Notes: generated from the sequence alone by a model not told the origin. Shown: positions 6,325 to 60,537, counted from the first letter of the stretch. The stretch is DNA of 64,000 bases from Alphaproteobacteria bacterium (GCA_017443235.1 JAFSOV010000004.1:974-64973); one strand, 5' to 3'. Translations and numbers: made by a program.

Positions 6325-7323
6325 ATGTCAAAAGTAAAAGTTGCAATAAATGGATTCGGCCGTATTGGACGCCTGGTGCTGCGCGCGGCATTGGAATCGG
6401 GGCGCAGTGATATTGAATTTGTCGCCGTCAATGATTTGGCACCCGCGGAACAGAACGCATATTTGTTACAGTATGATTCTGTGCACGGCAATTTGCCGAT
6501 GGATGTAAAATTGGTCGGCGACACAATTATTGTTGGAAAACATAAAATAAAATGCATTTCTGAAAAAGACCCAACAAAACTGCCTTGGAAAAAGATGGGG
6601 ATTGATGTGGTTATGGAATGCACAGGGATTTTCACCGCGGCGGACCGGGCGCGCGTTCATATCGATGCGGGTGCAAAGCGTGTTTTGGTTTCTGCACCTT
6701 CGGCGGGTGCCGATAAAACAATCGTGTATGGGGTAAATGAAAAAACATTGACAAAAAAAGACATCATTGTATCAAACGCGTCTTGCACAACGAATTGCCT
6801 GGCGCCGGTTGTTGCGGTGCTGGATAAAAAATTTGGCATCACATCGGGTTGGATGACAACCGTTCACGCATACACCGGCGACCAACAATTGTTGGATAAA
6901 AATCACAAAGATTTTCGACGCGCACGTGCGGCGAACCTGTCTATGATTCCAACCAGTACCGGCGCCGCCAAGGCCATCGGGTTGGTACTGCCGAAATTGG
7001 CGGGCAAATTGGACGGCATTGCGATTCGCGTCCCAACGCCGGACGTGTCGGTTGTTGAATTGGTTGTCAATTTGGCAAAGCCCGCAACGGTAGATTCGGT
7101 TAACGCCGCAATGCGCGCAAATGTATCAAACATACTGGGGTATAACGAAATGCCGTTGGTGTCGGTTGACTTTACGCACGATGCGCACAGTTCGATATTT
7201 GATGCGGGCCAGACGCACGTTTTGGATAAAAACCTGGTTCACGTGACCGCGTGGTATGACAACGAATGGGGATTTTCAAATCGTATGAGTGACACCGCCG
7301 TTGCAATGGGTAAATTGATTTAA
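6325..7323 (+). CDS. gap: glyceraldehyde-3-phosphate dehydrogenase
   Basis: NGFGRIGR Rossmann start, active-site SNASCTTNCLAP, WYDNEWG. Confidence 0.95.
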   Translation: MSKVKVAINGFGRIGRLVLRAALESGRSDIEFVAVNDLAPAEQNAYLLQYDSVHGNLPMDVKLVGDTIIVGKHKIKCISEKDPTKLPWKKMGIDVVMECTGIFTAADRARVHIDAGAKRVLVSAPSAGADKTIVYGVNEKTLTKKDIIVSNASCTTNCLAPVVAVLDKKFGITSGWMTTVHAYTGDQQLLDKNHKDFRRARAANLSMIPTSTGAAKAIGLVLPKLAGKLDGIAIRVPTPDVSVVELVVNLAKPATVDSVNAAMRANVSNILGYNEMPLVSVDFTHDAHSSIFDAGQTHVLDKNLVHVTAWYDNEWGFSNRMSDTAVAMGKLI

Positions 7324-9409: not shown

Positions 9410-9660
9410 TTGCCTTGTTGTTGTCTTTTCGTTTAACATCGATATGAGCCAAATGGGAATTTGGTTCGGGGCTGTGGTAGGCCCACGCTAGTTCGGTGCA
9501 ATGCATCGTAATCCATTGGATTCTCATGTTTTTGCACCGTCGTAATGTCCCCGACTGTGGTCGGGGTGCGGGTGGCGTATATCAAAAGGTCATCTGGATC
9601 GTTAACTAGCGTGATTTACCAACACCCCGACCGTCAATTCCCCTTTGACGGTTTCTTTAT
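9410..9660 (+). promoter_or_regulatory. type I structured leader, copy A (promoter, ~200-nt RNA, terminator-like hairpin)
   Basis: TTGCCT-18-TAACAT promoter. Shares TTGGTTCGGGGCTGT..GCCCA..TTCGGTGCA and a compensated long-range helix with 32424-32680. Ends with ACCGTCAA-loop-TTGACGGT plus a T-rich tail. Confidence 0.55.
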
Positions 9661-21909: not shown

Positions 21910-24141
21910 ATGGTAAAAGAAATTATTGAAAGAATTGATTCACAACAATTGTCAGACGCGCTTTCTACGCGTTATTTGTCGTACGCGGTCAGTACGATTG
22001 TATCGCGCGCCCTGCCCGATGTGCGGGACGGCCTTAAACCGGTGCACCGGCGTATTTTGTATTCTATGTTGCGGCAAAAATTGTCGCCTGCGGCGGCTTT
22101 CCGCAAGTGCGCGACTGTCGTTGGCGATGTTTTGGGGCACTATCACCCGCATGGCGATTCGTCTGTTTATGATGCTATGGTCAGACTTGCCCAGGATTTT
22201 TCCGTCCGTTATCCCCTGATTGATGGCCAGGGTAATTTTGGAAACATCGACGGCGACCCCCAGGCGGCATACCGTTACACCGAATCAAAGATGACCGATG
22301 CGGCAATGCTGATTATGGATGGCATTGACGAAGACAGTGTTGATATGATGCCGAACTTTGACGGCACCACGGTTGAGCCTGTGGTTATGCCGGGTGCGTT
22401 TCCAAACTTGCTGGCCAATGGGGGGATGGGTATTGCGGTCGGTATGGCAACAAATATCCCAACACATAATGTGGCCGAGGTTTGTGATGCATTGACATTG
22501 ATGGTTGATAAACCCGAATCAACCACAGCCCAAATTATGAAAAAAATGATTGGGCCGGATTTTCCAACCGGGGGGGTGCTGATTGATAACTTTGAAACCA
22601 TAGTAAAAAACTATGAAACGGGTAAAGGCGCATTTCGCATTCGCGCGCGATATGAAATCGAAGAATTGGAACGCGGCGGGTACCAGGTTGTAATTACCGA
22701 AATTCCGTACGGCATTGTTAAATCCAAGATGGTGGAACAAATTGGCGAAATGATTGATGCCAAGAAATTACCACTGATTGACGATATTGTTGATGAATCG
22801 ACCACCGATGTCCGCATCGTTATCACACCAAAATCGCGGAATATTCCGGCGGATAAAATGATGGCGCATTTGTTTGCACTGACGGACGCGGAATATAAAT
22901 TCAATATGAATTTCAATGTGATTGATTCTAATGGCGCGCCGCGCGTTATGGGCATTCGCGATGTTTTATTGGAATTCATCGCGCACCAGAAAAATGTTTT
23001 GCTGCGGCGTTCTAAATGGCGTTTGGGTAATATTGACCGGCGTTTGGAAATATTGGGCGGGTTGCTGATTGTGTATTTGAATTTGGACCGTGTTATTGAA
23101 ATTATCCGCACCGAAGACGAACCTAAGGCCGTATTGATGGCGGAATTTAATTTGACGGAAATTCAGGTTGAATCTATTTTGAATACGCGTTTGCGCGCAT
23201 TGCGTAAATTGGAAGAAATGGAAATCCGGCGTGAAGATAAAAATTTGCGCGACGAACGCGAACAACTGATTGCGTTGCTTGGTGACCCCGAAATACAAAA
23301 TGCCCAGATTAAGGCATGGTTTGCCGATATTAAACGGCAATATGATAAAAAAACGACACTGGGACGCCGCCGCACAACATGGGCGCCATTGACCCAAGAC
23401 ATTACAATCAACGCCGAAGAATTTATTGAAAAAGAACCTGTCACAATAATCCTGTCCACTATGGGTTGGATTCGTGCGGCGCGGGGTCATTTGGATTTGA
23501 ACGCATTGGATTTGAAATTCAAAGAAGGTGACGAATTGCAATGCGCGTTTCACGCAATGTCCACCGATAAAATAAACCTGTTTGGCGCATCGGGTCGTAT
23601 GTTCACGCTTTCGGCCAATGATTTGCCGTCTGCACGCGGGTTTGGCGAATCGGTGCGTATGATGGCGGACATTGGTGCCGATGAAAACATTGTTCGTGCA
23701 TTTGTTCTGGACACGACCGCGAAATATTTGGTTGTATCACGTCACGGAAACGGGTTCATCGTTGCCGGCGAAAACTGTGTTGCGCAAACACGCACCGGGA
23801 AACAGGTTATGAACGTGGACGATAAAAATCCGGCGGCGTTCTGTGTTCCGGTTACCGGGGACATGGTTGCAATGTCCGGTTCAAACGATAAATTGTTGAT
23901 ATTTGCCGCGGCCGATGTTCCAGAAATGATTCGTGGCAAAGGTGTAATTTTACAGAAATACAATGCCGAACGGACATACGTGTTGGATGTAATGTTCTTT
24001 AACGCGGCGGACGGTTTTGGTTGGACAACGGGCCGCGGCACAACCAAATTGGATGATTGGCAACCGTGGGTCGGCCGCCGTGCAACCCAGGGCCGCACGA
24101 TTCCGGTCGGTTTCCCCCGCAGTGGAAAATTTGGGAAATAG
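21910..24141 (+). CDS. parC: DNA topoisomerase IV subunit A
   Basis: [11 protein letters not shown] and HPHGD blocks, catalytic Tyr block AAYRYTES. No GyrA box seen in the C-terminal domain. Confidence 0.88.
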
Positions 24142-24171
24142 TGGTTAGTGTTAGTGATTAGTGGTTAGTAA
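24139..24171. repeat. TAGTG(G/A)T tandem array (six-frame stop array), copy 1
   Basis: TAGTGGT TAGTGT TAGTGAT TAGTGGT TAGTAA. The first TAG is the parC stop. TAG/TAA fall in all three frames on each strand. Confidence 0.85.
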
Positions 24172-24174
24172 AAA

Positions 24175-24199
24175 CGGATGCGAATCACATCCGTTTTTT
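24175..24199 (+). terminator. intrinsic terminator after parC
   Basis: CGGATGCGAATCACATCCG hairpin plus T6. Confidence 0.65.
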
Positions 24200-24218
24200 A
24201 GTCCCCTTCTTATGAAGA

Positions 24219-24462
24219 AGGGGTGGCGCCGAATGGCGACGGGGTAGTTGCCTGATAATAAAAAATTCCAGAAAGTTTGTATTTTTCCACATATTTTCTT
24301 TCCATAAGAACTGTCATTCCGGACTTGGTCCGGAACAGGGTCTATAAACCTGTGACGAAGCAAAGTTCTCCTCCCTTGGAGGAGTACGGCCCAGCGGGCC
24401 GGGAGGTGGGGGGAATTTATATCTTTTTTACCCCCACCCCGTCGCCGTTCGGCGCCACCCCT
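24219..24462. repeat. MITE-like element with 26-bp terminal inverted repeats
   Basis: AGGGGTGGCGCCGAATGGCGACGGGG (24219-24244) matches the reverse complement of 24437-24462 at 25 of 26 positions. The interior is homologous to 42150-42225. Confidence 0.6.
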
Positions 24463-32423: not shown

Positions 32424-32680
32424 TTGACTTTTTTCCTGTTTGCGTGTAAAGTTTTTCATGAATCCAAGAGATTGGGTTCGGGGCTGTCACAAGCCCATCT
32501 CATTCGGTGCATAAGCATCGTTAAATTGTTAGCATGGCGCGTTTGCGCCGGCTTTCCCCGCATGGTCGGGGAGTCGTGGTTATACAATAGGGGTAACCCG
32601 AAACCCACGAAATCAATAATGAGATGATTGTGAACTCCCCGGCCGTCAATCTTTTGGCGGTCGATTTTATTTAACCAAAA
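32424..32680 (+). promoter_or_regulatory. type I structured leader, copy B
   Basis: TTGACT-17-TAAAGT promoter. Same conserved blocks as 9410-9660. Helix CATCTCATT/AATGAGATG replaces ACGCTAGTT/AACTAGCGT. Terminator-like CCGTCAA..TTGGCGG plus T-rich tail. Confidence 0.55.
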
Positions 32681-47011: not shown

Positions 47012-48256
47012 CTATTTCCGTTTGTATGCCAAAATGTATGGCGATATTTTATCAATGCATTCCGCGGGAAACCATTTTCGCGGAATTTTTATTGCATTAT
47101 TTTGACCCGCGGACATTTTTGGTTGCACCATATCATCGCGGGCATTTATTATTTTCTCAACACGAACCGTCACAACATCAACCGCATTCGGTAAGACAAA
47201 GTTTATTTCTTCGCCGGCGTTGATTTCATTACGCAATTCCATTGTGACACCGTCACCATTCACCGCGGTGACAACACCCGCCGCATGATACGTGGACGTT
47301 GAACGCGCCGAATCATAATTGTGCGCATCGGGTGGAACCGGGCCATCAAAGAACGCCGTCGTGTAACCGCGCGATTCCAACACATTTAACATTTCCATAT
47401 AGGCGTCCGGGTCAAATTTTTCCGGGTCGCGCGCGTATGCATCCAACGCACAACGATACGCGTGAACAACACTGCCCACGTAATATTCGCTGCGGTTGCG
47501 ACCTTCTATCTTTAACGAATCGGGGGCGGATTCTAAAACCTCGGCCAAACGTGGCATTAAACACAAATCACGCGAATTCATAATATATGCGCCACGTTCG
47601 TCCTCGGTAATTGGCATTTCAATTCCCGATTCGTGTTCCCGCAGGATAACATCATATTTCCACCGGCACAGTTGCGCGCACGCGCCACGATTTGCCGGCC
47701 GCCCCGTTATAAAGTTCGACAACAAACATCGACCCGAATACGCCATACACATTGCACCGTGAACAAAGATTTCCAATTTTATATCTGGGCACGCACGGCG
47801 AATTGCGGCAAATTCCGCATGCGAAACTTCACGTGCCAACACGCACAATGACGCCCCCGCGTTTTGCCAAAACTTTACAGACGCGGCCGAGCAAATATTC
47901 GCCTGGGTTGAAATATGAATTGGCATATCGGGATGGTGTTCGCGTACCCATATTAAAACGCCCGGGTCGGCCACAATCAGCGCATCCGGATTCAAATATC
48001 GTATGGTTTCGGATACACGTGGCATATTCACGTATTCGCGGTCATGCGCAAACAGGTTGAACGCCAAATAGACTTTACGCCCGGCGGCGTGCGCCAATTC
48101 TATACCCGTTTTAACCTCTTCGGTGGTAATTTTCGCGCGCGCCCGCATTGAAAACCCCGGCAAACCGGCATATATGGCATCCGCGCCATAAAGAATCGCG
48201 GTTTTAAATGCGTCCAACGTTCCCGCCGGCGCCAAAAGTTCGGGCAGTTTTATCAT
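47012..48256 (-). CDS. peptidase U32 family protein
   Basis: Signature EIFVHGAMCMAYSGRCLLS. Confidence 0.85.
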   Translation of the reverse strand: MIKLPELLAPAGTLDAFKTAILYGADAIYAGLPGFSMRARAKITTEEVKTGIELAHAAGRKVYLAFNLFAHDREYVNMPRVSETIRYLNPDALIVADPGVLIWVREHHPDMPIHISTQANICSAASVKFWQNAGASLCVLAREVSHAEFAAIRRACPDIKLEIFVHGAMCMAYSGRCLLSNFITGRPANRGACAQLCRWKYDVILREHESGIEMPITEDERGAYIMNSRDLCLMPRLAEVLESAPDSLKIEGRNRSEYYVGSVVHAYRCALDAYARDPEKFDPDAYMEMLNVLESRGYTTAFFDGPVPPDAHNYDSARSTSTYHAAGVVTAVNGDGVTMELRNEINAGEEINFVLPNAVDVVTVRVEKIINARDDMVQPKMSAGQNNAIKIPRKWFPAECIDKISPYILAYKRK

Positions 48257-48328: not shown

Positions 48329-48793
48329 TTATCTTAATTTGCTTAACGCTTCTTTTATTGCGGCGTCACGTTGCTGTTCCGTGGCATTAAGGCTTTGTTT
48401 AGCTTGCCTCTTTTCGTTTACTTTCGCGGTTGCTTCTTTATATTTCCTTGCTTTTTCAGCCCTTTTTTGATAAACATCCCGCACCATCATTAGCAAATTA
48501 TGAAACCAATTTGTCCTTGCTTCTTGCATCTGGTTATTCGGTTCATAGTGGCAATCCATTTTGTAAACCAGATTCCCTTGTTTATCTTTAACGGTTATTG
48601 AAGCATCCGCGGCCGTACCCAAATTCATATAAAGGTCTATATCGTCTAACCTATATATTTCCATATTGCCTTCATTTGTACCAGGTTTGCCATATTCGCA
48701 TGTTATGCTTTCAGATTTTTTCACTTTTTTAGCCAAGAGGCTAATCAACTTTTCTTCCTGACGAAACTGCTTGTTAAAAATAAGTATCATCAA
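48329..48793 (-). CDS. hypothetical protein
   Basis: 154-aa ORF, no recognised motif. Confidence 0.45.
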   Translation of the reverse strand: MMILIFNKQFRQEEKLISLLAKKVKKSESITCEYGKPGTNEGNMEIYRLDDIDLYMNLGTAADASITVKDKQGNLVYKMDCHYEPNNQMQEARTNWFHNLLMMVRDVYQKRAEKARKYKEATAKVNEKRQAKQSLNATEQQRDAAIKEALSKLR

Positions 48794-48898: not shown

Positions 48899-48975
48899 TG
48901 CCGGTTTAGCTCAGTTGGTAGAGCGGCTGATTTGTAATCAGTAGGTCATTGGTTCAAGTCCGATAACCGGCACCA
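48899..48975 (+). tRNA. tRNA-Thr (UGU)
   Basis: GCCGGTTTAGCTCAGTTGGTAGAGCGGCTGATTTGTAATCAGT..GGTTCAAGTCCGATAACCGGCACCA. TTGCTT-16-TATAAT lies upstream and a terminator follows. Confidence 0.9.
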
Positions 48976-49172: not shown

Positions 49173-49898
49173 ATGAAATTGGTAAAACAATCCAGTGTCG
49201 CCGCCAGCCTGTGTGATGCTTCGGTAAATTTATCTGCGATTGGAGCATTTCAAATTGTGGAAAATATGATTACAGAATTTATGGGAAAACAAAAAATAGA
49301 TGGCCTTACATCCATACGCGAATACAATGCAATGTGGGTATTTATTCGCAATCGTGTCGAAATTTATCAAACACTGCACTGGATGGACGAATATACCGCC
49401 GAATGTTATATCAGTTCAATCGGCAATGCCAAAATGATAGTTGATACAGTCATAAAATCTAATGATAAAATTGCTATTGCGGCACGCACACAAATTTGCG
49501 CACTGGATTTATCAACCGGGAAAATTCGGCGCTGCGATACCGTTGGCATAGACGAACATATTTTGCCAACCACCCCAGAAATAAATATTGAATTTACCAA
49601 TACAAATTTCGAACCAATCGAATTGATTGATACCGGTGTTTCGCGCTTTACAGACATTGATTATTGCCAACACACAAATAATATGACCTATGTTCGGTAT
49701 ATTATCAATCAATACAATTTATCATGGATAAAAGAAAACCCAATTACCGCAATTGAAATACAATTTATAAACCAGACATTTGAAGGCGATAAACTTGAAA
49801 TCTATCGTTGTTCAAATAATAATTTTTCTATTCGGTGCAACGACAAGACCGTCGCGAATTGCATAATCAAAACAGAGCATAAAGAATTGAGTAATTGA
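49173..49898 (+). CDS. acyl-ACP thioesterase-like (double hotdog) protein
   Basis: 241 aa. The overall pattern resembles the FatA/B-type thioesterase family. The assignment is tentative. Confidence 0.45.
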   Translation: MKLVKQSSVAASLCDASVNLSAIGAFQIVENMITEFMGKQKIDGLTSIREYNAMWVFIRNRVEIYQTLHWMDEYTAECYISSIGNAKMIVDTVIKSNDKIAIAARTQICALDLSTGKIRRCDTVGIDEHILPTTPEINIEFTNTNFEPIELIDTGVSRFTDIDYCQHTNNMTYVRYIINQYNLSWIKENPITAIEIQFINQTFEGDKLEIYRCSNNNFSIRCNDKTVANCIIKTEHKELSN

Positions 49899-49945
49899 TT
49901 TAAATTCTTTGTTATGCTAAATTTTATGAACACAAAGGGGGTTGC

Positions 49946-50530
49946 ATGAAAAACACAAAAGAAAAATTGTTGGAAAATGCGACTACTATGTTCGCAGAGC
50001 ATGGATTTGACGGCGTATCTACACGCAGTTTGGTTACCGTGTCCATGGTGAATTTATGCACAATAAATTACTATTTCGGTTCCAAACAGAAATTATATGA
50101 TGCGGTTATTGACAATATTATAAATAATGTTCAAGAAAACCTTATTAAAAAGACGGATGAATATATCAAATGCAATATTCCGGCCGGTGAAAAAATTGTT
50201 TTTATAATTGGGGAATTTTTTGATTATCTGTTTTCTAATAATGTTTCAAATTCTATGGCATTGATTTTGTTTCGCGAATTGTTAAACACAACACCGGGTG
50301 GCGACAGAATTTATTCAGAAATTATGGAGCCATTAAAAAAACAATTTGTAAATTTGATAATCCAAGAAACCGGCGCAACAAAACAAAGCGCATATATCAA
50401 TGCACATTGCCTGGTTAGCCAGACCGTATCTTTTCGATTATTGCAAAACAGAAAACATTATTCACGCGAATTTCTAAAAAGCGCAAAGCAACAAATTATC
50501 GAAAACTGTAAAAAAATTTTGGAACATTAA
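49946..50530 (+). CDS. TetR-family transcriptional regulator
   Basis: N-terminal HTH FAEHGFDGVSTRSLVTVSMVNLCTINYYFGSKQKLY. Confidence 0.8.
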   Translation: MKNTKEKLLENATTMFAEHGFDGVSTRSLVTVSMVNLCTINYYFGSKQKLYDAVIDNIINNVQENLIKKTDEYIKCNIPAGEKIVFIIGEFFDYLFSNNVSNSMALILFRELLNTTPGGDRIYSEIMEPLKKQFVNLIIQETGATKQSAYINAHCLVSQTVSFRLLQNRKHYSREFLKSAKQQIIENCKKILEH

Positions 50531-50557
50531 AAAACGGAATCAATCGATTCCGTTTTT
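50525..50557. repeat. terminator hairpin, left copy of a duplicated ~33-bp sequence
   Basis: CATTAAAAAACGGAATCAATCGATTCCGTTTTT recurs at 53471-53506, with three extra A there. Confidence 0.8.
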
Positions 50558-50604
50558 TTAGTTTTTGTTTTCTTAACTAGAAATATGGGATTTGTTTAAG
50601 AAAA

Positions 50605-51516
50605 TTACTTTTCTTCATCTGGTAATCTGCCAAACGGAAGGAAATTTATACCACCCGTTATGTTGGCATGTTCCGCGCCACCAATTTGATAATTTCCCAA
50701 TGTTACTATCCACATTAAATTACCGTTATCATCAAATGCACCCCCACCGGAATTACCACTCCAGCCTTGGCAGCCTGTAAACTGACTTTTTGAATTTTGG
50801 GAACATTTAGAAACTTTTAATAAATTGTCTTCAAAACGCCGACGATTGTTCAAAATAAACATTTCTACGCCGTTGCCACGCACCCCACCATCCGCCGTAT
50901 GAACGTCTTGGACCTTAACAACATTCTCGATAAACTTTATATAATCATCCTTAATTTCTTGTATTTCTTGATCACTCATTATTTTTAATGCACCATAACC
51001 AATAATCCGGACATCTTTGGCACCACGGGCAAAAGAATCGTTTATTTTTACATACGCACCATCTAAAACCTCTTTTACACCATCGGCTGAATTTGACCCG
51101 ATTGTTAGCAATCTGTACTTTGCCCAATCCCCATTTGGGTTCGTTCCATCGGCATAATTAAAATTGCCCTTTTTAACCAACCGTGCATTAAGTTCGCGAC
51201 CATTTGGCAACCTGATTCTTACCAAATCATCAATAATATTATCGTGATTAGAATCTACACAATGTTTGGCGGTATATAAAAAATATCCCACATCGTCTTG
51301 TGTTAGCCCTTGTCTTTTTACTATGGTCCCCGAACAATGTGTGCGTTCATTGGCAAAAACAAATGTCGCAACCGCATTATATGGTTTCTCTTGTTTTTGT
51401 TCATCGGTAACATAGCACCGTTTATCAATCGTATACAATTCAGGATTGGTACACGCATCATCAGCCCAAGAAATTAACGGTACGCACAATAAAAACCATA
51501 CGATGATTTGTTTCAT
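50605..51516 (-). CDS. secreted trypsin-like (S1) serine protease
   Basis: Signal peptide, His block TAKHCV, Ser block GWSGNSGGGAF. Confidence 0.75.
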   Translation of the reverse strand: MKQIIVWFLLCVPLISWADDACTNPELYTIDKRCYVTDEQKQEKPYNAVATFVFANERTHCSGTIVKRQGLTQDDVGYFLYTAKHCVDSNHDNIIDDLVRIRLPNGRELNARLVKKGNFNYADGTNPNGDWAKYRLLTIGSNSADGVKEVLDGAYVKINDSFARGAKDVRIIGYGALKIMSDQEIQEIKDDYIKFIENVVKVQDVHTADGGVRGNGVEMFILNNRRRFEDNLLKVSKCSQNSKSQFTGCQGWSGNSGGGAFDDNGNLMWIVTLGNYQIGGAEHANITGGINFLPFGRLPDEEK

Positions 51517-51518
51517 AA

Positions 51519-52220
51519 TTATTCGATATTTGGTTTACAATCATATCCATAATCACTAAGGCTTAATGCAATGTCCGTGATCCTCCTATCTCTGATCTGA
51601 ATATTCCCATGCGTACCAGAAAAAACCTGTTCCGAATATCCGTTGGTAACAGATGTCGTGGATTCACAATTAACAATAGGAACCAAACAACAAACATTAT
51701 AAAATTTATTTTTGCCGCCCTTGCTGGCCGGTCGGCTTACAACACATCTATTATCTGTTTTGGAACAATCTATATTTTTGCTTGTTCCCGGAATAATAGT
51801 ATAGCCGTCATAACTATGTTCATTGCCACATTTACTTCTCGCCAGCCTTTCCATATATGATTGATGACACTGGGAATGTTCTTTAACACCGGTTTCTACC
51901 ACAATCTTGGCCGAAGACATTGCGACATACCAAACATATTGTAAATTTCTGTCATAATCCAAATCAGGCCAACTCTTACAATCCTCCAGTTCTACTGAAT
52001 GCCACATTTGTTTATCACCGTCCGTATAAGGCAAGAGTAGATCTATTTCGCTTACATTCGCATAGTTAACAATTTTTTTACACAACACGATCGCCGTTGC
52101 CAAATCAATCTTGCCGGCAATGTAATCCGCATTCATAGATTCTATATTGAATGGCGGATTGTCACAATACGCGTTTTGGACATAAAACAAACAGGACAAA
52201 ATTATTAAAAAATTCTTCAT
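51519..52220 (-). CDS. secreted cysteine-rich protein, unknown function
   Basis: Start at MKNFLIILSCLF with RBS AGGAGAG. Signal peptide. Confidence 0.55.
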   Translation of the reverse strand: MKNFLIILSCLFYVQNAYCDNPPFNIESMNADYIAGKIDLATAIVLCKKIVNYANVSEIDLLLPYTDGDKQMWHSVELEDCKSWPDLDYDRNLQYVWYVAMSSAKIVVETGVKEHSQCHQSYMERLARSKCGNEHSYDGYTIIPGTSKNIDCSKTDNRCVVSRPASKGGKNKFYNVCCLVPIVNCESTTSVTNGYSEQVFSGTHGNIQIRDRRITDIALSLSDYGYDCKPNIE

Positions 52221-52230
52221 ATTTTCTCTC

Positions 52231-53199
52231 CTACTGTTGCAAAGCCTCTTCACACATTTCGGCTTGGCGTATCATTTTTTTTGTTAAAGTTATTAGTGAA
52301 ATATTTAACCCCGTCTCTACCAAACCTGTACCAACATTAACCCCCGACATTATGTTGGCCGTCGTATTCAAATTATTTACACTTTGTTTTTCAGATTCTG
52401 TTAAGGCGATTCTTTGTTCCGCATTCATATATTTATTGGAATTGGATGATGCACTGGCCGCTGTGCCAATACCACCAACCACAACGCCTGCGATTGATGT
52501 GCCCATTACACCTTTCATACGTTTTTCTATTTTTTGTGCATCACTGACGTTTATCTGGTTACACCAGGTCTTTACATTATTGATTTTTTTCGCTATTGGA
52601 TTATCCAACGGACTTACACCCGCAGATGTCAATTTGGCCGGCATATCTGACAAAGATTTTATCATTTTATTGCACGCCTCTATATGCTGAATCAAATCAG
52701 ATTGATTTGCGTTTACGCCCGATATTATTGCAGATGCCAAATTTGTGCCGATTGTTCCGGCCATTAAACCGGTGCGCCAATTACCCAATTTTTTAGAGCG
52801 GTCTAATTTGTTCTGTAATTCCGCAATTTCTGCCATCGGGGAAATTACATCGGTATAAAATTGTTCAAGACTCATTGTTTTGATACTTTCCGCAGAGCAA
52901 CCACCTTTTGCGCATATTTGGTCTATCAATGATTCTATTTCCCTTTCTTCGCTTGATTTCGCTATGCCAACGGCCAACGCACCACCGGCTGCAACGGTTC
53001 CAACCCCGGTTACCGCGGTGTTTATTTTTGATACATTTGAAACTTTTGAAATTTCATCGGATAATCCCGAACAAACTATTTTTGTGGCATTAAACAATTC
53101 TGTTGCGTTGTTAACAATATTGTCGCTATCAGAATCTACTTGGCCGAACGACTGGACGGTTATTAAGCCGAATATACACACAACTATAAATTTTTTCAT
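52231..53199 (-). CDS. secreted protein with four glycine-zipper-like hydrophobic segments
   Basis: Signal peptide. Segments TGVGTVAAGGALAVGIA, GLMAGTIGTNLASAIISG, MGTSIAGVVVGGIGTAA and GVNVGTGLVETGL. Confidence 0.6.
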   Translation of the reverse strand: MKKFIVVCIFGLITVQSFGQVDSDSDNIVNNATELFNATKIVCSGLSDEISKVSNVSKINTAVTGVGTVAAGGALAVGIAKSSEEREIESLIDQICAKGGCSAESIKTMSLEQFYTDVISPMAEIAELQNKLDRSKKLGNWRTGLMAGTIGTNLASAIISGVNANQSDLIQHIEACNKMIKSLSDMPAKLTSAGVSPLDNPIAKKINNVKTWCNQINVSDAQKIEKRMKGVMGTSIAGVVVGGIGTAASASSNSNKYMNAEQRIALTESEKQSVNNLNTTANIMSGVNVGTGLVETGLNISLITLTKKMIRQAEMCEEALQQ

Positions 53200-53237
53200 A
53201 CCTTATCCTTTCTTTACGAATGTTCGATTAGACACGA

Positions 53238-53453
53238 ACAAAAAACCACCAGACAAAGCAAGTGGTTGGAGGTTCAGAACTATTATGCTCGGCAAATAGT
53301 GGGCTTATTCAACATATTCACCGCCCTCCAACCCTGCCTTAGGTTGGAGGTATTTTTTGTCCCCGCGGACACCGAACATAACAAGGGTTCTGACACCCAA
53401 CAAAGCAACCGCCCTGTCAATGGTATGTTACACTAAAATTGGATAAAAATCAA
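53238..53453 (-). promoter_or_regulatory. type II (CTCCAACC) leader/sRNA module, copy c
   Basis: On the minus strand: TTGATT-17-TAACAT, CCTCCAACC-loop-GGTTGGAGG hairpin, GAATAT..GAATAAG box, a second CCTCCAACC overlapping the terminator AACCAC..GTGGTT plus T6. Confidence 0.6.
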
Positions 53454-53470
53454 AACAATAATAAAAACAC

Positions 53471-53506
53471 CATTAAAAAAAAACGGAATCAATCGATTCC
53501 GTTTTT
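53471..53506. repeat. terminator hairpin, right copy of the duplicated sequence
   Basis: CATTAAAAAAAAACGGAATCAATCGATTCCGTTTTT. Confidence 0.8.
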
Positions 53507-53509
53507 AAT

Positions 53510-54265
53510 TTATTCTTTGTTTTCTTGTTTGGCGCGTTCTTTTTCGTGCCGGTCAACCGCATTCGCAACGCTTTCTATTTGCAGTAATTGATTTTCCAAT
53601 GCGCTGCGTTCAGAATTTTTATAACCGGTTTCTTCGTTTCCCGCCGGTGACGGACGCGTGTCTTTACCCGGCACTGCATCGCCGTCAACCACACGCGGAT
53701 TAATCAGGTTATCAAAAATCTTTTTTGATTCACGCGAACCCGCGACATCACGTTGCAACAATTTGTTTTCCGGGCCGGGGATAAACCATTCGTCCAATTT
53801 AACCGCCGTCATTTGCATAATTGGACGCGTGCGCGCATCTTCTATCCAATGCGGCATACGCGGCGCATCCGAATAATACCATAATGCAACCCAATACGCC
53901 ACACCCATAACAATAACACCACGAACAATACCAAATATCACCCCCAATGTGTGGTCGGTGACATTCATCACGCTGTCTTGAATACGGTCACGCAGTTTCT
54001 GGTTAAAGAATCCGGCAATCAACAATATCACAAAGAACACAATGAAATACGATGCCACCAATGTTCCAACCGTTGATTCGGCCAACCCAAACCAAGATTG
54101 CAACAATCCATCCAACCAAGGCGACACAAAACGCGCCGTCACCGCCGCCACAACCCATGACAGTGTGGCAACGGTTTCGTAAATTCCGCCACGAATTGTC
54201 GCCCATACCGTTGACGCCAACAACACGCCAATATAGATATAATCAAGTCCAGTTAAATTAAACAT
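53510..54265 (-). CDS. cvpA: CvpA-family membrane protein
   Basis: Four N-terminal TM helices with the CvpA-like start (DYIYIGVLLASTVWATIRG) and a hydrophilic tail. Confidence 0.65.
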   Translation of the reverse strand: MFNLTGLDYIYIGVLLASTVWATIRGGIYETVATLSWVVAAVTARFVSPWLDGLLQSWFGLAESTVGTLVASYFIVFFVILLIAGFFNQKLRDRIQDSVMNVTDHTLGVIFGIVRGVIVMGVAYWVALWYYSDAPRMPHWIEDARTRPIMQMTAVKLDEWFIPGPENKLLQRDVAGSRESKKIFDNLINPRVVDGDAVPGKDTRPSPAGNEETGYKNSERSALENQLLQIESVANAVDRHEKERAKQENKE

Positions 54266-56921: not shown

Positions 56922-56955
56922 ATCGCTCTCCTGTTGGAAACATTATAGCATATTT

Positions 56956-56984
56956 TAGTGATTAGTGTTAGTGGTTAGTGTTAG
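56956..56984. repeat. TAGTG(G/A)T tandem array, copy 3
   Basis: TAGTGAT TAGTGT TAGTGGT TAGTGT TAG, adjacent to a terminator homologous to 24175-24199. Confidence 0.8.
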
Positions 56985-56987
56985 CAC

Positions 56988-57020
56988 AAAAAAACGGATG
57001 CAATCGCATCCGTTTTTTTT
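56988..57020. terminator. bidirectional terminator after proS
   Basis: A7-CGGATGCAATCGCATCCG-T8. Confidence 0.65.
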
Positions 57021-60078: not shown

Positions 60079-60150
60079 AGAATAACCCCTTGGTTTTCAA
60101 TAACGTCGCATTAAGAATACCAAACAATGCAAGCCCACGCAATAGTTTTT

Positions 60151-60181
60151 TAGTGGTTAGTGTTAGTGTTAGTGGTTAGTA
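60151..60181. repeat. TAGTG(G)T tandem array, copy 4
   Basis: TAGTGGT TAGTGT TAGTGT TAGTGGT TAGTA. Confidence 0.8.
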
Positions 60182-60210
60182 AAACAATAGCAAACAGCAG
60201 CGTTTTTTTA

Positions 60211-60431
60211 TTGCATTAAAATTACTTTGATGCTAACATTCACTATGTCGGTGGGTGTTCCGCCGATGGGGTGTGAAGACCCCTTTACATGTGGCCCGTA
60301 TGGGCAAAAAACTCCAACCCCAGGGTTGGAGGGATGCGAATAATATAGGGCCCAGCCCATAAAATAAGCACACAATTTGCATGTAAATTGTCTTCAACCT
60401 CCAACCACTCGAATTTTTCGGTGGTTTTTTA
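60211..60431 (+). promoter_or_regulatory. type II (CTCCAACC) leader/sRNA module, copy d
   Basis: TTGCAT-17-TAACAT, hairpin TCGGTGG/CCGCCGA, GGGGT..ACCCC, CTCCAACC-CCA-GGGTTGGAG, then CCTCCAACCAC overlapping the terminator AACCAC..GTGGTT plus T6. Confidence 0.6.
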
Positions 60432-60480
60432 TTCCCCTTCACACCGTGAAGGGGGGGACCACCGGAGGTGGTGGGGTAGT
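60432..60480. repeat. GC-rich double-hairpin module, variant of 41481-41529
   Basis: CCCCTTCACACCGTGAAGGGGGGGACCACCGGAGGTGGTGGGGTAG. The second stem changes from CCGCG/CGCGG to CCACC/GGTGG. Confidence 0.75.
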
Positions 60481-60537
60481 TTTACTTCACTGCGCAACGT
60501 GGGTAAAAAAGAACAAGGAACAAAGGGGAGAATCACA

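Follow-up and report, generated by a model that had tools for sequence, protein, structure and literature searches.

A strain-variable, terminator-bracketed operon for an S1 protease and two further predicted exported proteins between cvpA and tRNA-Thr in Candidatus Enterousia

A duplicated terminator around a three-gene cassette

We analyzed a 64,000-nucleotide (nt) stretch of DNA from an alphaproteobacterium (GCA_017443235.1 JAFSOV010000004.1:974-64973; hereafter the window, along whose full length all coordinates are counted), which is chromosome of Candidatus Enterousia, a reduced-genome rumen alphaproteobacterium of the order Rs-D84; exact-protein look-ups gave rumen metagenomes as its source habitat. 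With genomes of about 0.75-1 Mb, these bacteria have neither respiration nor standard nutrient transporters (PMC12306168). Our subject is a cassette that lies between tetR, a regulator gene, and cvpA, a core gene on the opposite strand, and is bracketed by two copies of one hairpin. Between the copies we found a single promoter with a structured leader (leader II, about 53453-53238) and three tightly spaced minus-strand genes, which encode a Gly-rich protein of 322 amino acids (aa; gz322), a Cys-rich protein and an S1 protease (Table 1). G+C content is 0.34-0.40 in the cassette region vs. 0.42-0.49 in the core flanks. An earlier note on this DNA, made from the sequence alone, had listed the duplicated hairpin, its position relative to both stop codons, three extra A in one copy, the single leader and three co-oriented AT-rich genes, and all of these details proved correct.

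Table 1 Features of the locus between the U32 peptidase gene and cvpA, in window coordinates
Feature	Position	Strand	Basis or remarks
U32 peptidase	47012-48256	-	
154-aa hypothetical protein	48329-48793	-	
tRNA-Thr (UGU)	48900-48975	+	ARAGORN; ancestrally faces cvpA across the hairpin they share; right-hand border of the variable zone
Acyl-ACP thioesterase-like gene	49173-49898	+	Pfam
TetR/CecR-type regulator (tetR)	49946-50530	+	Pfam
Repeat copy A	50525-50574	.	tetR stop, palindromic bidirectional terminator (50529-50557) and remnant of a foreign cvpA 3' end (50558-50574)
S1 (V8-like) serine protease, 303 aa, predicted exported	50605-51516	-	Pfam Trypsin_2
Cys-rich protein, 233 aa, predicted exported	51519-52220	-	
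gz322, Gly-rich protein, 322 aa, predicted exported	52231-53199	-	
Leader II RNA	53238-53427	-	nhmmer, RNAalifold
Cassette promoter, sigma-70-type	53425-53453	-	Direct reading of the sequence
Repeat copy B	53471-53523	.	Hairpin (53478-53506) and true cvpA 3' end; predicted cvpA terminator
cvpA (Colicin_V production family)	53510-54265	-	Pfam; core gene, left-hand border of the variable zone

The two hairpin copies share a 29-nt palindrome, AAAAAACGGAATCAATCGATTCCGTTTTT, with 0 mismatches, and a chance match to this 29-mer arose in 0 of 100 dinucleotide-preserving shuffles. The hairpin has a perfect 11-bp stem (CGGAATC.. / GATTCCG), a 4-nt loop and tracts of A6-9 and T5-7 on either side, so that a stem-loop with a U-tract can be read in both orientations, as in a bidirectional intrinsic terminator; in our pattern scan, copy B was picked up on both strands and copy A on the plus strand, with the minus-strand T6 of copy A found by direct reading. 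Copy A starts with the last codon and stop of tetR (CAT TAA, 50525-50530), while copy B, which has the three extra A, runs to within 3 nt of the cvpA stop codon (53510-53512), and in many species the hairpin is placed 3' of the stop codons of converging genes. Hairpin B is predicted to terminate cvpA, and hairpin A to terminate tetR from one side and the cassette from the other. In every state of the locus, the hairpin is flanked by ATTAAAAA. A CATTAA to the left of copy B might be taken for a tetR remnant, which is doubtful, as an identical sequence stands in a relative that has no tetR (L018; L-numbers denote contigs or loci of relatives).

The repeat also proved longer than first noted. Past the T-tract, copy A goes on with TTAGTTTTTGTTTTCTT, the reverse complement of the last five cvpA codons and stop, which is identical at 17/17 positions to the cvpA end of L014. 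This remnant encodes ENKN*, while the resident cvpA ends in ENKE*. Because the flank of copy A matches a cvpA tail, the duplicated unit comprises the hairpin and that tail, about 50 nt in all, and by its codons the flank reads as the leftover 3' end of a foreign cvpA allele.

For comparison we scanned species-representative genomes with CvpA, which gave 80 loci labelled Candidatus Enterousia or uncultured Alphaproteobacteria. Across 1.39 Mb from these 80 related species, the hairpin stem is confined to the 3' side of cvpA or to a second copy within the gap between cvpA and tRNA-Thr. The concern that it might be a very common terminator genome-wide is thus answered in the negative, as far as this related DNA indicates. 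A third hairpin of the window (56989-57017) is just 86% similar; it shares the frame of A-tract, CGGA...TCCG and T-tract as well as an AATC loop, with a different inner stem.

It is exceedingly improbable that the repeat merely reflects two generic terminators that coincide, or an assembly chimera. Terminators in the style of A-tract, CGG...CCG and T-tract are indeed common in the window (5 matches), and a number of short contigs have their breaks at the hairpin or close to it, but the shuffles gave no match, the identity runs into flank outside the hairpin, and the stem is specific to this locus. Moreover, at least 18 independent contigs, drawn from several samples and built by several assemblers, show the cassette arrangement, as does another species, and these comparative data refute the reading. 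The contig breaks are more simply due to the multi-copy leader II beside the hairpin: the matching contigs from the same samples, L127 and L128, break in the 5' end of gz322, which identifies the leader II region as the unassembled piece. We accordingly rejected the idea that contigs L004, L006 and L007, which end at the hairpin, are a sign of excision or strain mixtures.

Empty sites and a variable gap between cvpA and tRNA-Thr

Scanning metagenomes with TetR revealed junctions without the cassette, and an exact look-up of the window's TetR yielded L124, a contig of an NCBI metagenome-assembled genome (MAG) with an identical TetR. At the DNA level, L124 is 99.3% identical to the window across tRNA, thioesterase gene and tetR, 97.1% over 6 kb from cvpA and 99.25% past the U32 gene, and this high identity of the flanks indicates that the two belong to the same species. 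L124 carries a single hairpin and no cassette, and its 47 nt at 6584-6630 align both to window 50528-50574 and to 53478-53524, so that the cassette together with one repeat copy (2,949 nt) forms a clean presence/absence polymorphism within a species. In three further relatives, L098 (TetR 98%, CvpA 85% identity), L099 (81% and 87%) and L103 (98% and 87%), tetR and cvpA likewise converge on one hairpin with no insert, making these, as L124, collinear one-copy counterparts of an indel bounded by direct repeats; L016 is a decayed empty site in which tetR is reduced to fragments. By sequence comparison, the cassette is a presence/absence polymorphism with its breakpoints in the repeat, and one that has been exchanged between species. 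The proposal of the earlier note that the cassette was inserted at a single hairpin between tetR and cvpA is therefore borne out by the four empty sites. Its picture of an insertion bounded by the repeat also stands, while the duplication itself is not intrinsic to the cassette, as L018 and L025 carry the three genes without a second hairpin, which was one of the refuting outcomes named in the note.

The polymorphism might also reflect an older cassette-bearing state from which L124 lost the cassette through recombination or slippage between direct repeats of 29-50 nt, a course of events to which we give a little less than an even chance. Were recombination to delete the DNA from one copy to the other, exactly the L124 junction would result, with tetR on the left and the resident ENKE* tail of cvpA on the right, and the cassette is found in at least 18 contigs vs. 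one cassette-free MAG of the window species. On the other hand, the cassette and the flank of copy A are of a foreign allele type, near-identical to another species, so that a recent entry must have occurred at some point, and L011, the closest sister species, has a minimal gap between cvpA and the tRNA. Loss in L124 would merely turn the event around and does not conflict with the import of the cassette that we propose below.

Beyond the window species, the order mdh, acetyltransferase gene, sod, grx, cvpA is conserved across the 80 species, but the content after cvpA is not. Across about 45 related species, the gap between cvpA and the tRNA ranges from 38 nt to 4.5 kb. In at least 13 of them (including L011, L015 and L036) it measures 38-113 nt with the hairpin alone inside, such as in L011, whose CvpA is 94% identical and in which cvpA and the hairpin are followed by the opposite-strand tRNA-Thr and then U32. 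This minimal, hairpin-only gap in many relatives identifies the hairpin as a terminator that cvpA and the tRNA shared ancestrally. Other species hold varied DNA in a gap of 0.45-4.5 kb, with the hairpin present twice (the window, L012, L013 and L014), on the cvpA side alone (L016, L017, L018, L025, L028 and L090) or on the tRNA side alone (L022 and L031). In L012 and L014 the same hairpin brackets unrelated cargo, namely glycosyltransferase genes behind a different leader. The gap of L017 and L028 contains a copy of leader II, followed in L017 by a different, predicted exported protein of 234 aa. The three-gene cassette is found again in L013, L018 and L025; in the latter two it occupies the same site with the cvpA-side hairpin alone and no tetR, and its distal terminator is a different hairpin beside the tRNA.

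We also observed that the neighboring thioesterase-tetR pair (49173-50530) behaves as a module of its own. It is 98-99% identical in L013, L098, L103 and L124, although the core flanks of L013, L098 and L103 are just 80-87% identical, while in L016 the pair has decayed to fragments. It occurs without the cassette in L098, L099, L103 and L124, while the cassette occurs without it in L018 and L025. By these comparisons the pair is an imported, independently mobile module of the same hot spot, and since the two modules occur independently, we rejected TetR as a regulator of the cassette. In L098, about 1.8 kb of other DNA (800-2650) lies between tRNA-Thr and the thioesterase gene, a further sign of a plasticity zone. 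On the far side of the tRNA, L011, L013 and the conspecific L124 lack the 154-aa gene that the window carries in the gap from tRNA-Thr to U32, L098 has it at 81% identity, and the same gap in L016 and L025 holds gz-like paralogues (44-45% identity); this patchy distribution, together with the paralogues, suggests that the other side of the tRNA is a variable site as well.

Import of the cassette and possible origin of the duplication

When we compared the locus with L013, a different species of Candidatus Enterousia, DNA identity was about 80% in cvpA and U32 and 97-100% from about 53200 to about 49000, while identity to L018 reached 98-99% in the gz322 gene only. Such jumps in identity indicate that blocks of this locus moved recently between species, and a cassette 97-100% identical to that of L013 within flanks of about 80% indicates import. 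The flank of copy A corresponds to the cvpA tail allele of other species, which suggests that copy A arrived together with the cassette. The hairpin stands on varying sides in different inserts, so the joints are not fixed, and the duplication is the scar of one particular event rather than an intrinsic end of the cassette.

Taken together, we find it fairly probable that the gap is a recombination hot spot holding two imported modules, that the duplication came about by homology-facilitated illegitimate recombination, and that the cassette is a protease-linked operon for exported proteins. Incoming DNA of the type cvpA-hairpin-cassette would have met a genome of the type tetR-hairpin-cvpA, with the duplicated arrangement arising once. 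A homologous crossover in cvpA would have served as the anchor, and the far end would have been joined illegitimately 17 nt before the stop of the recipient cvpA, leaving an intact cvpA plus a duplicated tail and hairpin. The block might then have spread by ordinary homologous recombination, anchored in cvpA and the hairpin on one side and the hairpin and tetR on the other, and the cassette could be lost again through recombination between the two repeats. Selection would retain joints in or beside the roughly 40-nt terminator: both neighbors are conserved genes, which would limit surviving joints to the terminator and could thereby explain why the hairpin is found time and again at inserts, whether duplicated or on one side or the other, and also around the unrelated cargo of L012 and L014. 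Homology-facilitated illegitimate recombination during DNA uptake is known experimentally from Acinetobacter and Streptococcus pneumoniae. One anchor in cvpA and one illegitimate joint would give just the order observed here, in which an intact cvpA and its hairpin are followed by foreign DNA and then by a short duplicated piece of the recipient (the hairpin and 17 nt of cvpA); in contrast to those experiments, the process is here read from its scar alone.

A competing explanation would make the hairpin a dedicated recombination site, comparable to an integron attC or to an att core, at which promoter-bearing cassettes are moved by an enzyme encoded elsewhere; we regard this as improbable. Several observations speak for it: three unrelated sets of cargo, spread over four species (the window and L013; L012; L014), lie between hairpin copies, the copies of any one genome agree down to the loop, which varies from genome to genome, the conspecific indel is precise and the stem is specific to this locus. 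Integron attC sites are imperfect palindromes of 57-141 nt with R''/L''/L'/R' boxes and extrahelical bases, which separate promoterless cassettes moved by the integrase IntI. The locus resembles this in that cargo units are parted by hairpin repeats that are near-identical within a genome and different between genomes, but its repeat is a simple, perfect terminator palindrome of about 28 nt (a plain 11-bp stem with a 4-nt loop) without R/L boxes or extrahelical bases, its cassette has its own promoter and leader, and there is never more than one cassette between hairpin copies. The same cassette also sits at the same site without a second hairpin, ending in a different distal terminator, in L018 and L025, other inserts have the hairpin on the cvpA side alone or the tRNA side alone, and the coding remnant of cvpA in copy A is what an illegitimate joint, rather than a defined core site, would leave. 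No recombinase was recognized with Pfam among the open reading frames between U32 and cvpA, which encode the thioesterase, TetR, the protease and three hypothetical proteins (the 154-aa protein, the Cys-rich protein and gz322), and no integrase is present at the locus, to which this search was confined. Illegitimate and homologous recombination thus appear the better fit, as far as sequence comparison goes.

Several points nonetheless weigh against our favored account. We found no donor with the exact end of the cassette before the event, so that the illegitimate joint and any microhomology at it are inferred. The hairpin loop (window 50541-50544 and 53490-53493; L013 10775-10778 and 13715-13718) is the same in both copies of each genome yet flipped across genomes, reading GATT in the direction of cvpA in the window and L124, AATC in L013, L036 and L103, and AAAT/ATTT elsewhere, for which the simple model has no explanation. 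Three unrelated cargo sets within the same hairpin in four species are more than a single accident, and a mechanism directed by the hairpin is possible. Gain in the window strain and loss in L124 would fit the sequences alike. Finally, export of the products is predicted solely from N-terminal signal-like sequences.

Integration hot spots and genomic islets between core genes, often near tRNA genes and turned over by homologous recombination in their flanks, are well known. The present locus resembles them in that the content between the syntenic cvpA and tRNA-Thr/U32 varies, with AT-rich mosaic inserts, movement between species, presence or absence within one species and no mobility genes. 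It differs in that the islet is tiny, its borders are a duplicated terminator with a gene-tail remnant rather than a tRNA-derived att repeat, and its modules carry their own promoter and structured leader. Nor does it correspond to an integrase-mediated, tRNA-linked island, given the lack of a recombinase among the locus reading frames and a repeat made of terminator and cvpA tail; likeness to the tRNA end is limited to a 5-nt TGGTG. In short, what varies between strains here is a genuine, if fairly ordinary, small accessory islet within a recombination hot spot; such features are known, and this one is documented with unusual precision.

Promoter, leader and products of the cassette

The cassette promoter consists of TTGATT and TAACAT with a 17-nt spacer, and L013, L018, L017 and the window's other leader II copy at 60.2 kb have the same hexamers at the same distance; our consensus promoter scan did not list it, as it has fewer than 9/12 matches. 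Leader II, of about 190 nt, folds with a z-score of -4.8 and comprises hairpins P2 and P3, a first CCUCCAACC (53350-53342), GGUUGGAGG (53333-53325), a second CCUCCAACC (53272-53264) and a terminator. GGUUGGAGG and the downstream CCUCCAACC are invariant, with the upstream CCUCCAACC less conserved, and the downstream copy overlaps the 5' arm of the intrinsic terminator (53267-53240). By RNAalifold and pair counts, pairing in the terminator reaches 95.8%, with 2 covarying pairs there and 3 in P3, and the small hairpins carry compensatory changes. The invariant 9-mers permit alternative pairings, in which the 9-mer of the terminator arm could pair instead with an invariant upstream one.

Searching with nhmmer, we identified four copies of leader II in the window, that of the cassette and those at 60247-60432 (plus strand), 28912-28748 and 41918-41784 (both minus), and further copies in L016, L017, L022, L025, L028, L047, L051, L057, L063, L066 and L086. 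The gene 3' of the leader encodes a predicted exported protein in 4/4 cases read (the cassette, its L013, L018 and L025 homologues, the gene at window 60538, and L017). Leader II appears to represent an attenuator- or riboswitch-type leader, as yet undescribed, of Rs-D84 bacteria, through whose terminator and antiterminator states expression of the cassette would be gated. It shares with attenuators and riboswitch expression platforms a promoter-proximal, structured RNA that ends in an intrinsic terminator and offers alternative 9-mer pairings, and differs from them in matching no Rfam family.

A second type of leader, with a conserved core of GGGTTCGGGGCTGT...AGCCC and then ...CCCCGAC..., precedes the hairpin-bracketed glycosyltransferase cassettes of L012 (10850-11085) and L014 (10870-11100), with related sequence in the window at about 9459-9485 and 32471-32497. 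Other repeated elements of the window include short tandem motifs of the GTGATTAGTGTTAGTGGTTAGTG type, which recur beside terminators (24136-24175, 56953-56992 and 60148-60187), and GC-rich intergenic hairpin elements, e.g., AGTCCCCTTCAC..GTGAAGGGG GGGACC..GGTGGGG (41479-41529, 42001-42051 and 60431-60481; 24359-24406 and 42176-42223; 24200-24245, 24436-24462 and 42112-42138), one of which lies directly 3' of the leader II copy at 60.4 kb.

The first product, gz322, has a signal-like N-terminus, four hydrophobic segments rich in Gly, Ala and Thr, and 6 invariant Cys. We found more than 1000 homologues (360 representative clusters at 50% identity), nearly all of about 300-340 aa, and every one with a source name comes from an alphaproteobacterial MAG; none of them contains a Pfam domain, and 66 columns are invariant among 101 sequences. 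On these searches, gz322 represents a large, uncharacterized family that appears specific to the order Rs-D84. It had no match in Pfam, NCBIfam, PDB, PHROGs or PADLOC, where P5CR_dimer, HNH_5 and mycoplas_twoTM (20.8 bits vs. a cut-off of 125) were sub-threshold noise only, and longer family members (400-640 aa) contained no known extra domain. A phage or plasmid origin was rejected, as there are no relatives in IMG/VR, INPHARED phages or PLSDB. A patch at 52801-53000 (residues about 67-133) is about 85% identical to L013 and L018, vs. 98-100% for the rest of the gene; in distant homologues (e.g., P0003) the divergent part comprises only residues ~80-135, with residues 67-78 largely invariant. 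The patch may reflect gene conversion or diversifying selection.

The four segments had been described as resembling glycine zippers. Hydrophobic Gly-rich segments are indeed present, with relaxed (G/A/S/T)xxxGxxx(G/A/S/T) motifs in segments 1-3 and GxxxG in segments 2-4, but strict GxxxGxxxG is absent, and Kyte-Doolittle peaks over 19 residues of 1.2-1.7 are borderline for a transmembrane helix. Structure prediction, which the earlier note had suggested, gave no confident fold: two AlphaFold2 runs, with 28 and 101 aligned homologues, returned all-helical, unreliable models with mean confidence (pLDDT) of 53.5 and 47.8 and values below 30 in the Gly-rich segments. Foldseek against PDB with the better (still poor) model yielded no significant match (best E 0.06, template modelling (TM) score <0.25), with the pore-forming proteins SmhB and AhlB at E about 1.

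The Cys-rich protein has 8 invariant Cys and a CSKTDNRCVV motif; its relatives form only 7 clusters among 5.8 billion proteins, and its gene directly follows a gz322 homologue wherever context was retrieved. For the third product, the earlier assignment as a secreted S1 protease agrees with a Trypsin_2 match of 30.8 bits (gathering threshold 27.6) and a triad of H85, D130 and S256 (TAKHC, GDW, GNSGG) that is invariant in 16 homologues, a combination that places it in peptidase family S1, with export predicted from its N-terminus. It has 147 homologues, many on the same contigs as members of the gz322 family, and relatives of the protease carry the JGI name 'V8-like Glu-specific endopeptidase'. 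With V8-like S1 proteases (glutamyl endopeptidases; Pfam Trypsin_2/Trypsin) it shares fold family, His-Asp-Ser triad, GNSGG serine motif and signal peptide; it differs as part of a divergent clade restricted to these Alphaproteobacteria, with a Cys-containing N-terminal motif (D.C...DKRCYV) and a GYGALKIMSD insert, and no sequence in PDB matched it.

Genomic context links the two families. In 5/8 further contig contexts retrieved, the gz322 homologue directly follows tatC and a LysM/M23 peptidase gene, with gaps of 5 to ~65 nt, and in 4/5 of these, 1-3 S1 protease genes come next (L091 has no recognizable protease); the gz and protease genes are adjacent in L097 and overlap by 4 nt in L120, L121 and L122. 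In L092 (3417-7925), a TcpQ-like gene and a secretin gene are directly followed by a homologue of gz322 (61% identity) and by a second 320-aa gene, a context that may point to a route of export for the family or to a role connected with pili. The genetic link between gz322 and S1 proteases is real, as read from these contigs, and the protease dependence raised in the earlier note is plausible. We infer that all three products are Sec-exported envelope or secreted proteins, and our best guess is that gz322 and the protease form a conserved functional pair, a membrane-associated protein matured or partnered by its protease.

The earlier note had instead put forward a toxin or bacteriocin-type system, in which gz322 would be a membrane-inserting or pore-forming protein, the Cys-rich protein a partner or specificity factor and the S1 protease a processing activator; we found no positive evidence for such a system and consider it unlikely, if somewhat less so than a dedicated recombination site. 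Signal-like N-termini on all three proteins, four hydrophobic Gly/Ala-rich segments left unplaced by AlphaFold2, an intact protease triad tightly linked to the gz322 family, and a strain-variable, horizontally exchanged, AT-rich locus with a hypervariable patch in gz322 would all suit it, and attack or uptake factors are conceivable in Enterousia, whose reduced genomes lack standard nutrient transporters (PMC12306168). Similarity to alpha-pore-forming toxins and glycine-zipper proteins (ClyA/Hbl/AhlB/SmhB, the VacA N-terminus) comprises a length of about 300 aa, a predicted all-alpha fold and hydrophobic segments rich in small residues. However, gz322 shows neither sequence nor confident structural similarity to them, all Foldseek matches having E >0.06, and is conserved like a core envelope gene. 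The cassette encodes three predicted exported proteins only, with no immunity-like or exporter gene, and searches against Pfam, NCBIfam, PDB, PHROGs and PADLOC gave no similarity to toxin, bacteriocin, immunity, export, phage or defense families. The family is also very conserved and usually placed right after tatC and the M23 peptidase gene, as in an envelope housekeeping operon, both of which seem more in keeping with a role in the envelope. A reading that joins both unlikely ideas, with the cvpA hairpin as a capture site for swaps of promoter-plus-leader cassettes by a structure-specific mechanism as yet unknown, and the trio as a protease-matured, membrane-inserting effector that acts on host or neighbor cells and is switched via leader II, appears improbable to us.

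The locus offers a natural example, resolved to the base pair, of how small accessory operons enter and leave a genome of <1 Mb without obvious mobile-element machinery, landing in the only dispensable DNA between two conserved genes, their shared terminator, and leaving that terminator duplicated. It also flags an uncharacterized Rs-D84 family of Gly-rich, Cys-containing, predicted exported proteins genetically coupled to S1 proteases, and a multi-copy, terminator-containing leader RNA ahead of genes for exported proteins. Either the gz322 family or leader II could bear on how the uncultured, transporter-poor Rs-D84 bacteria interact with their surroundings.

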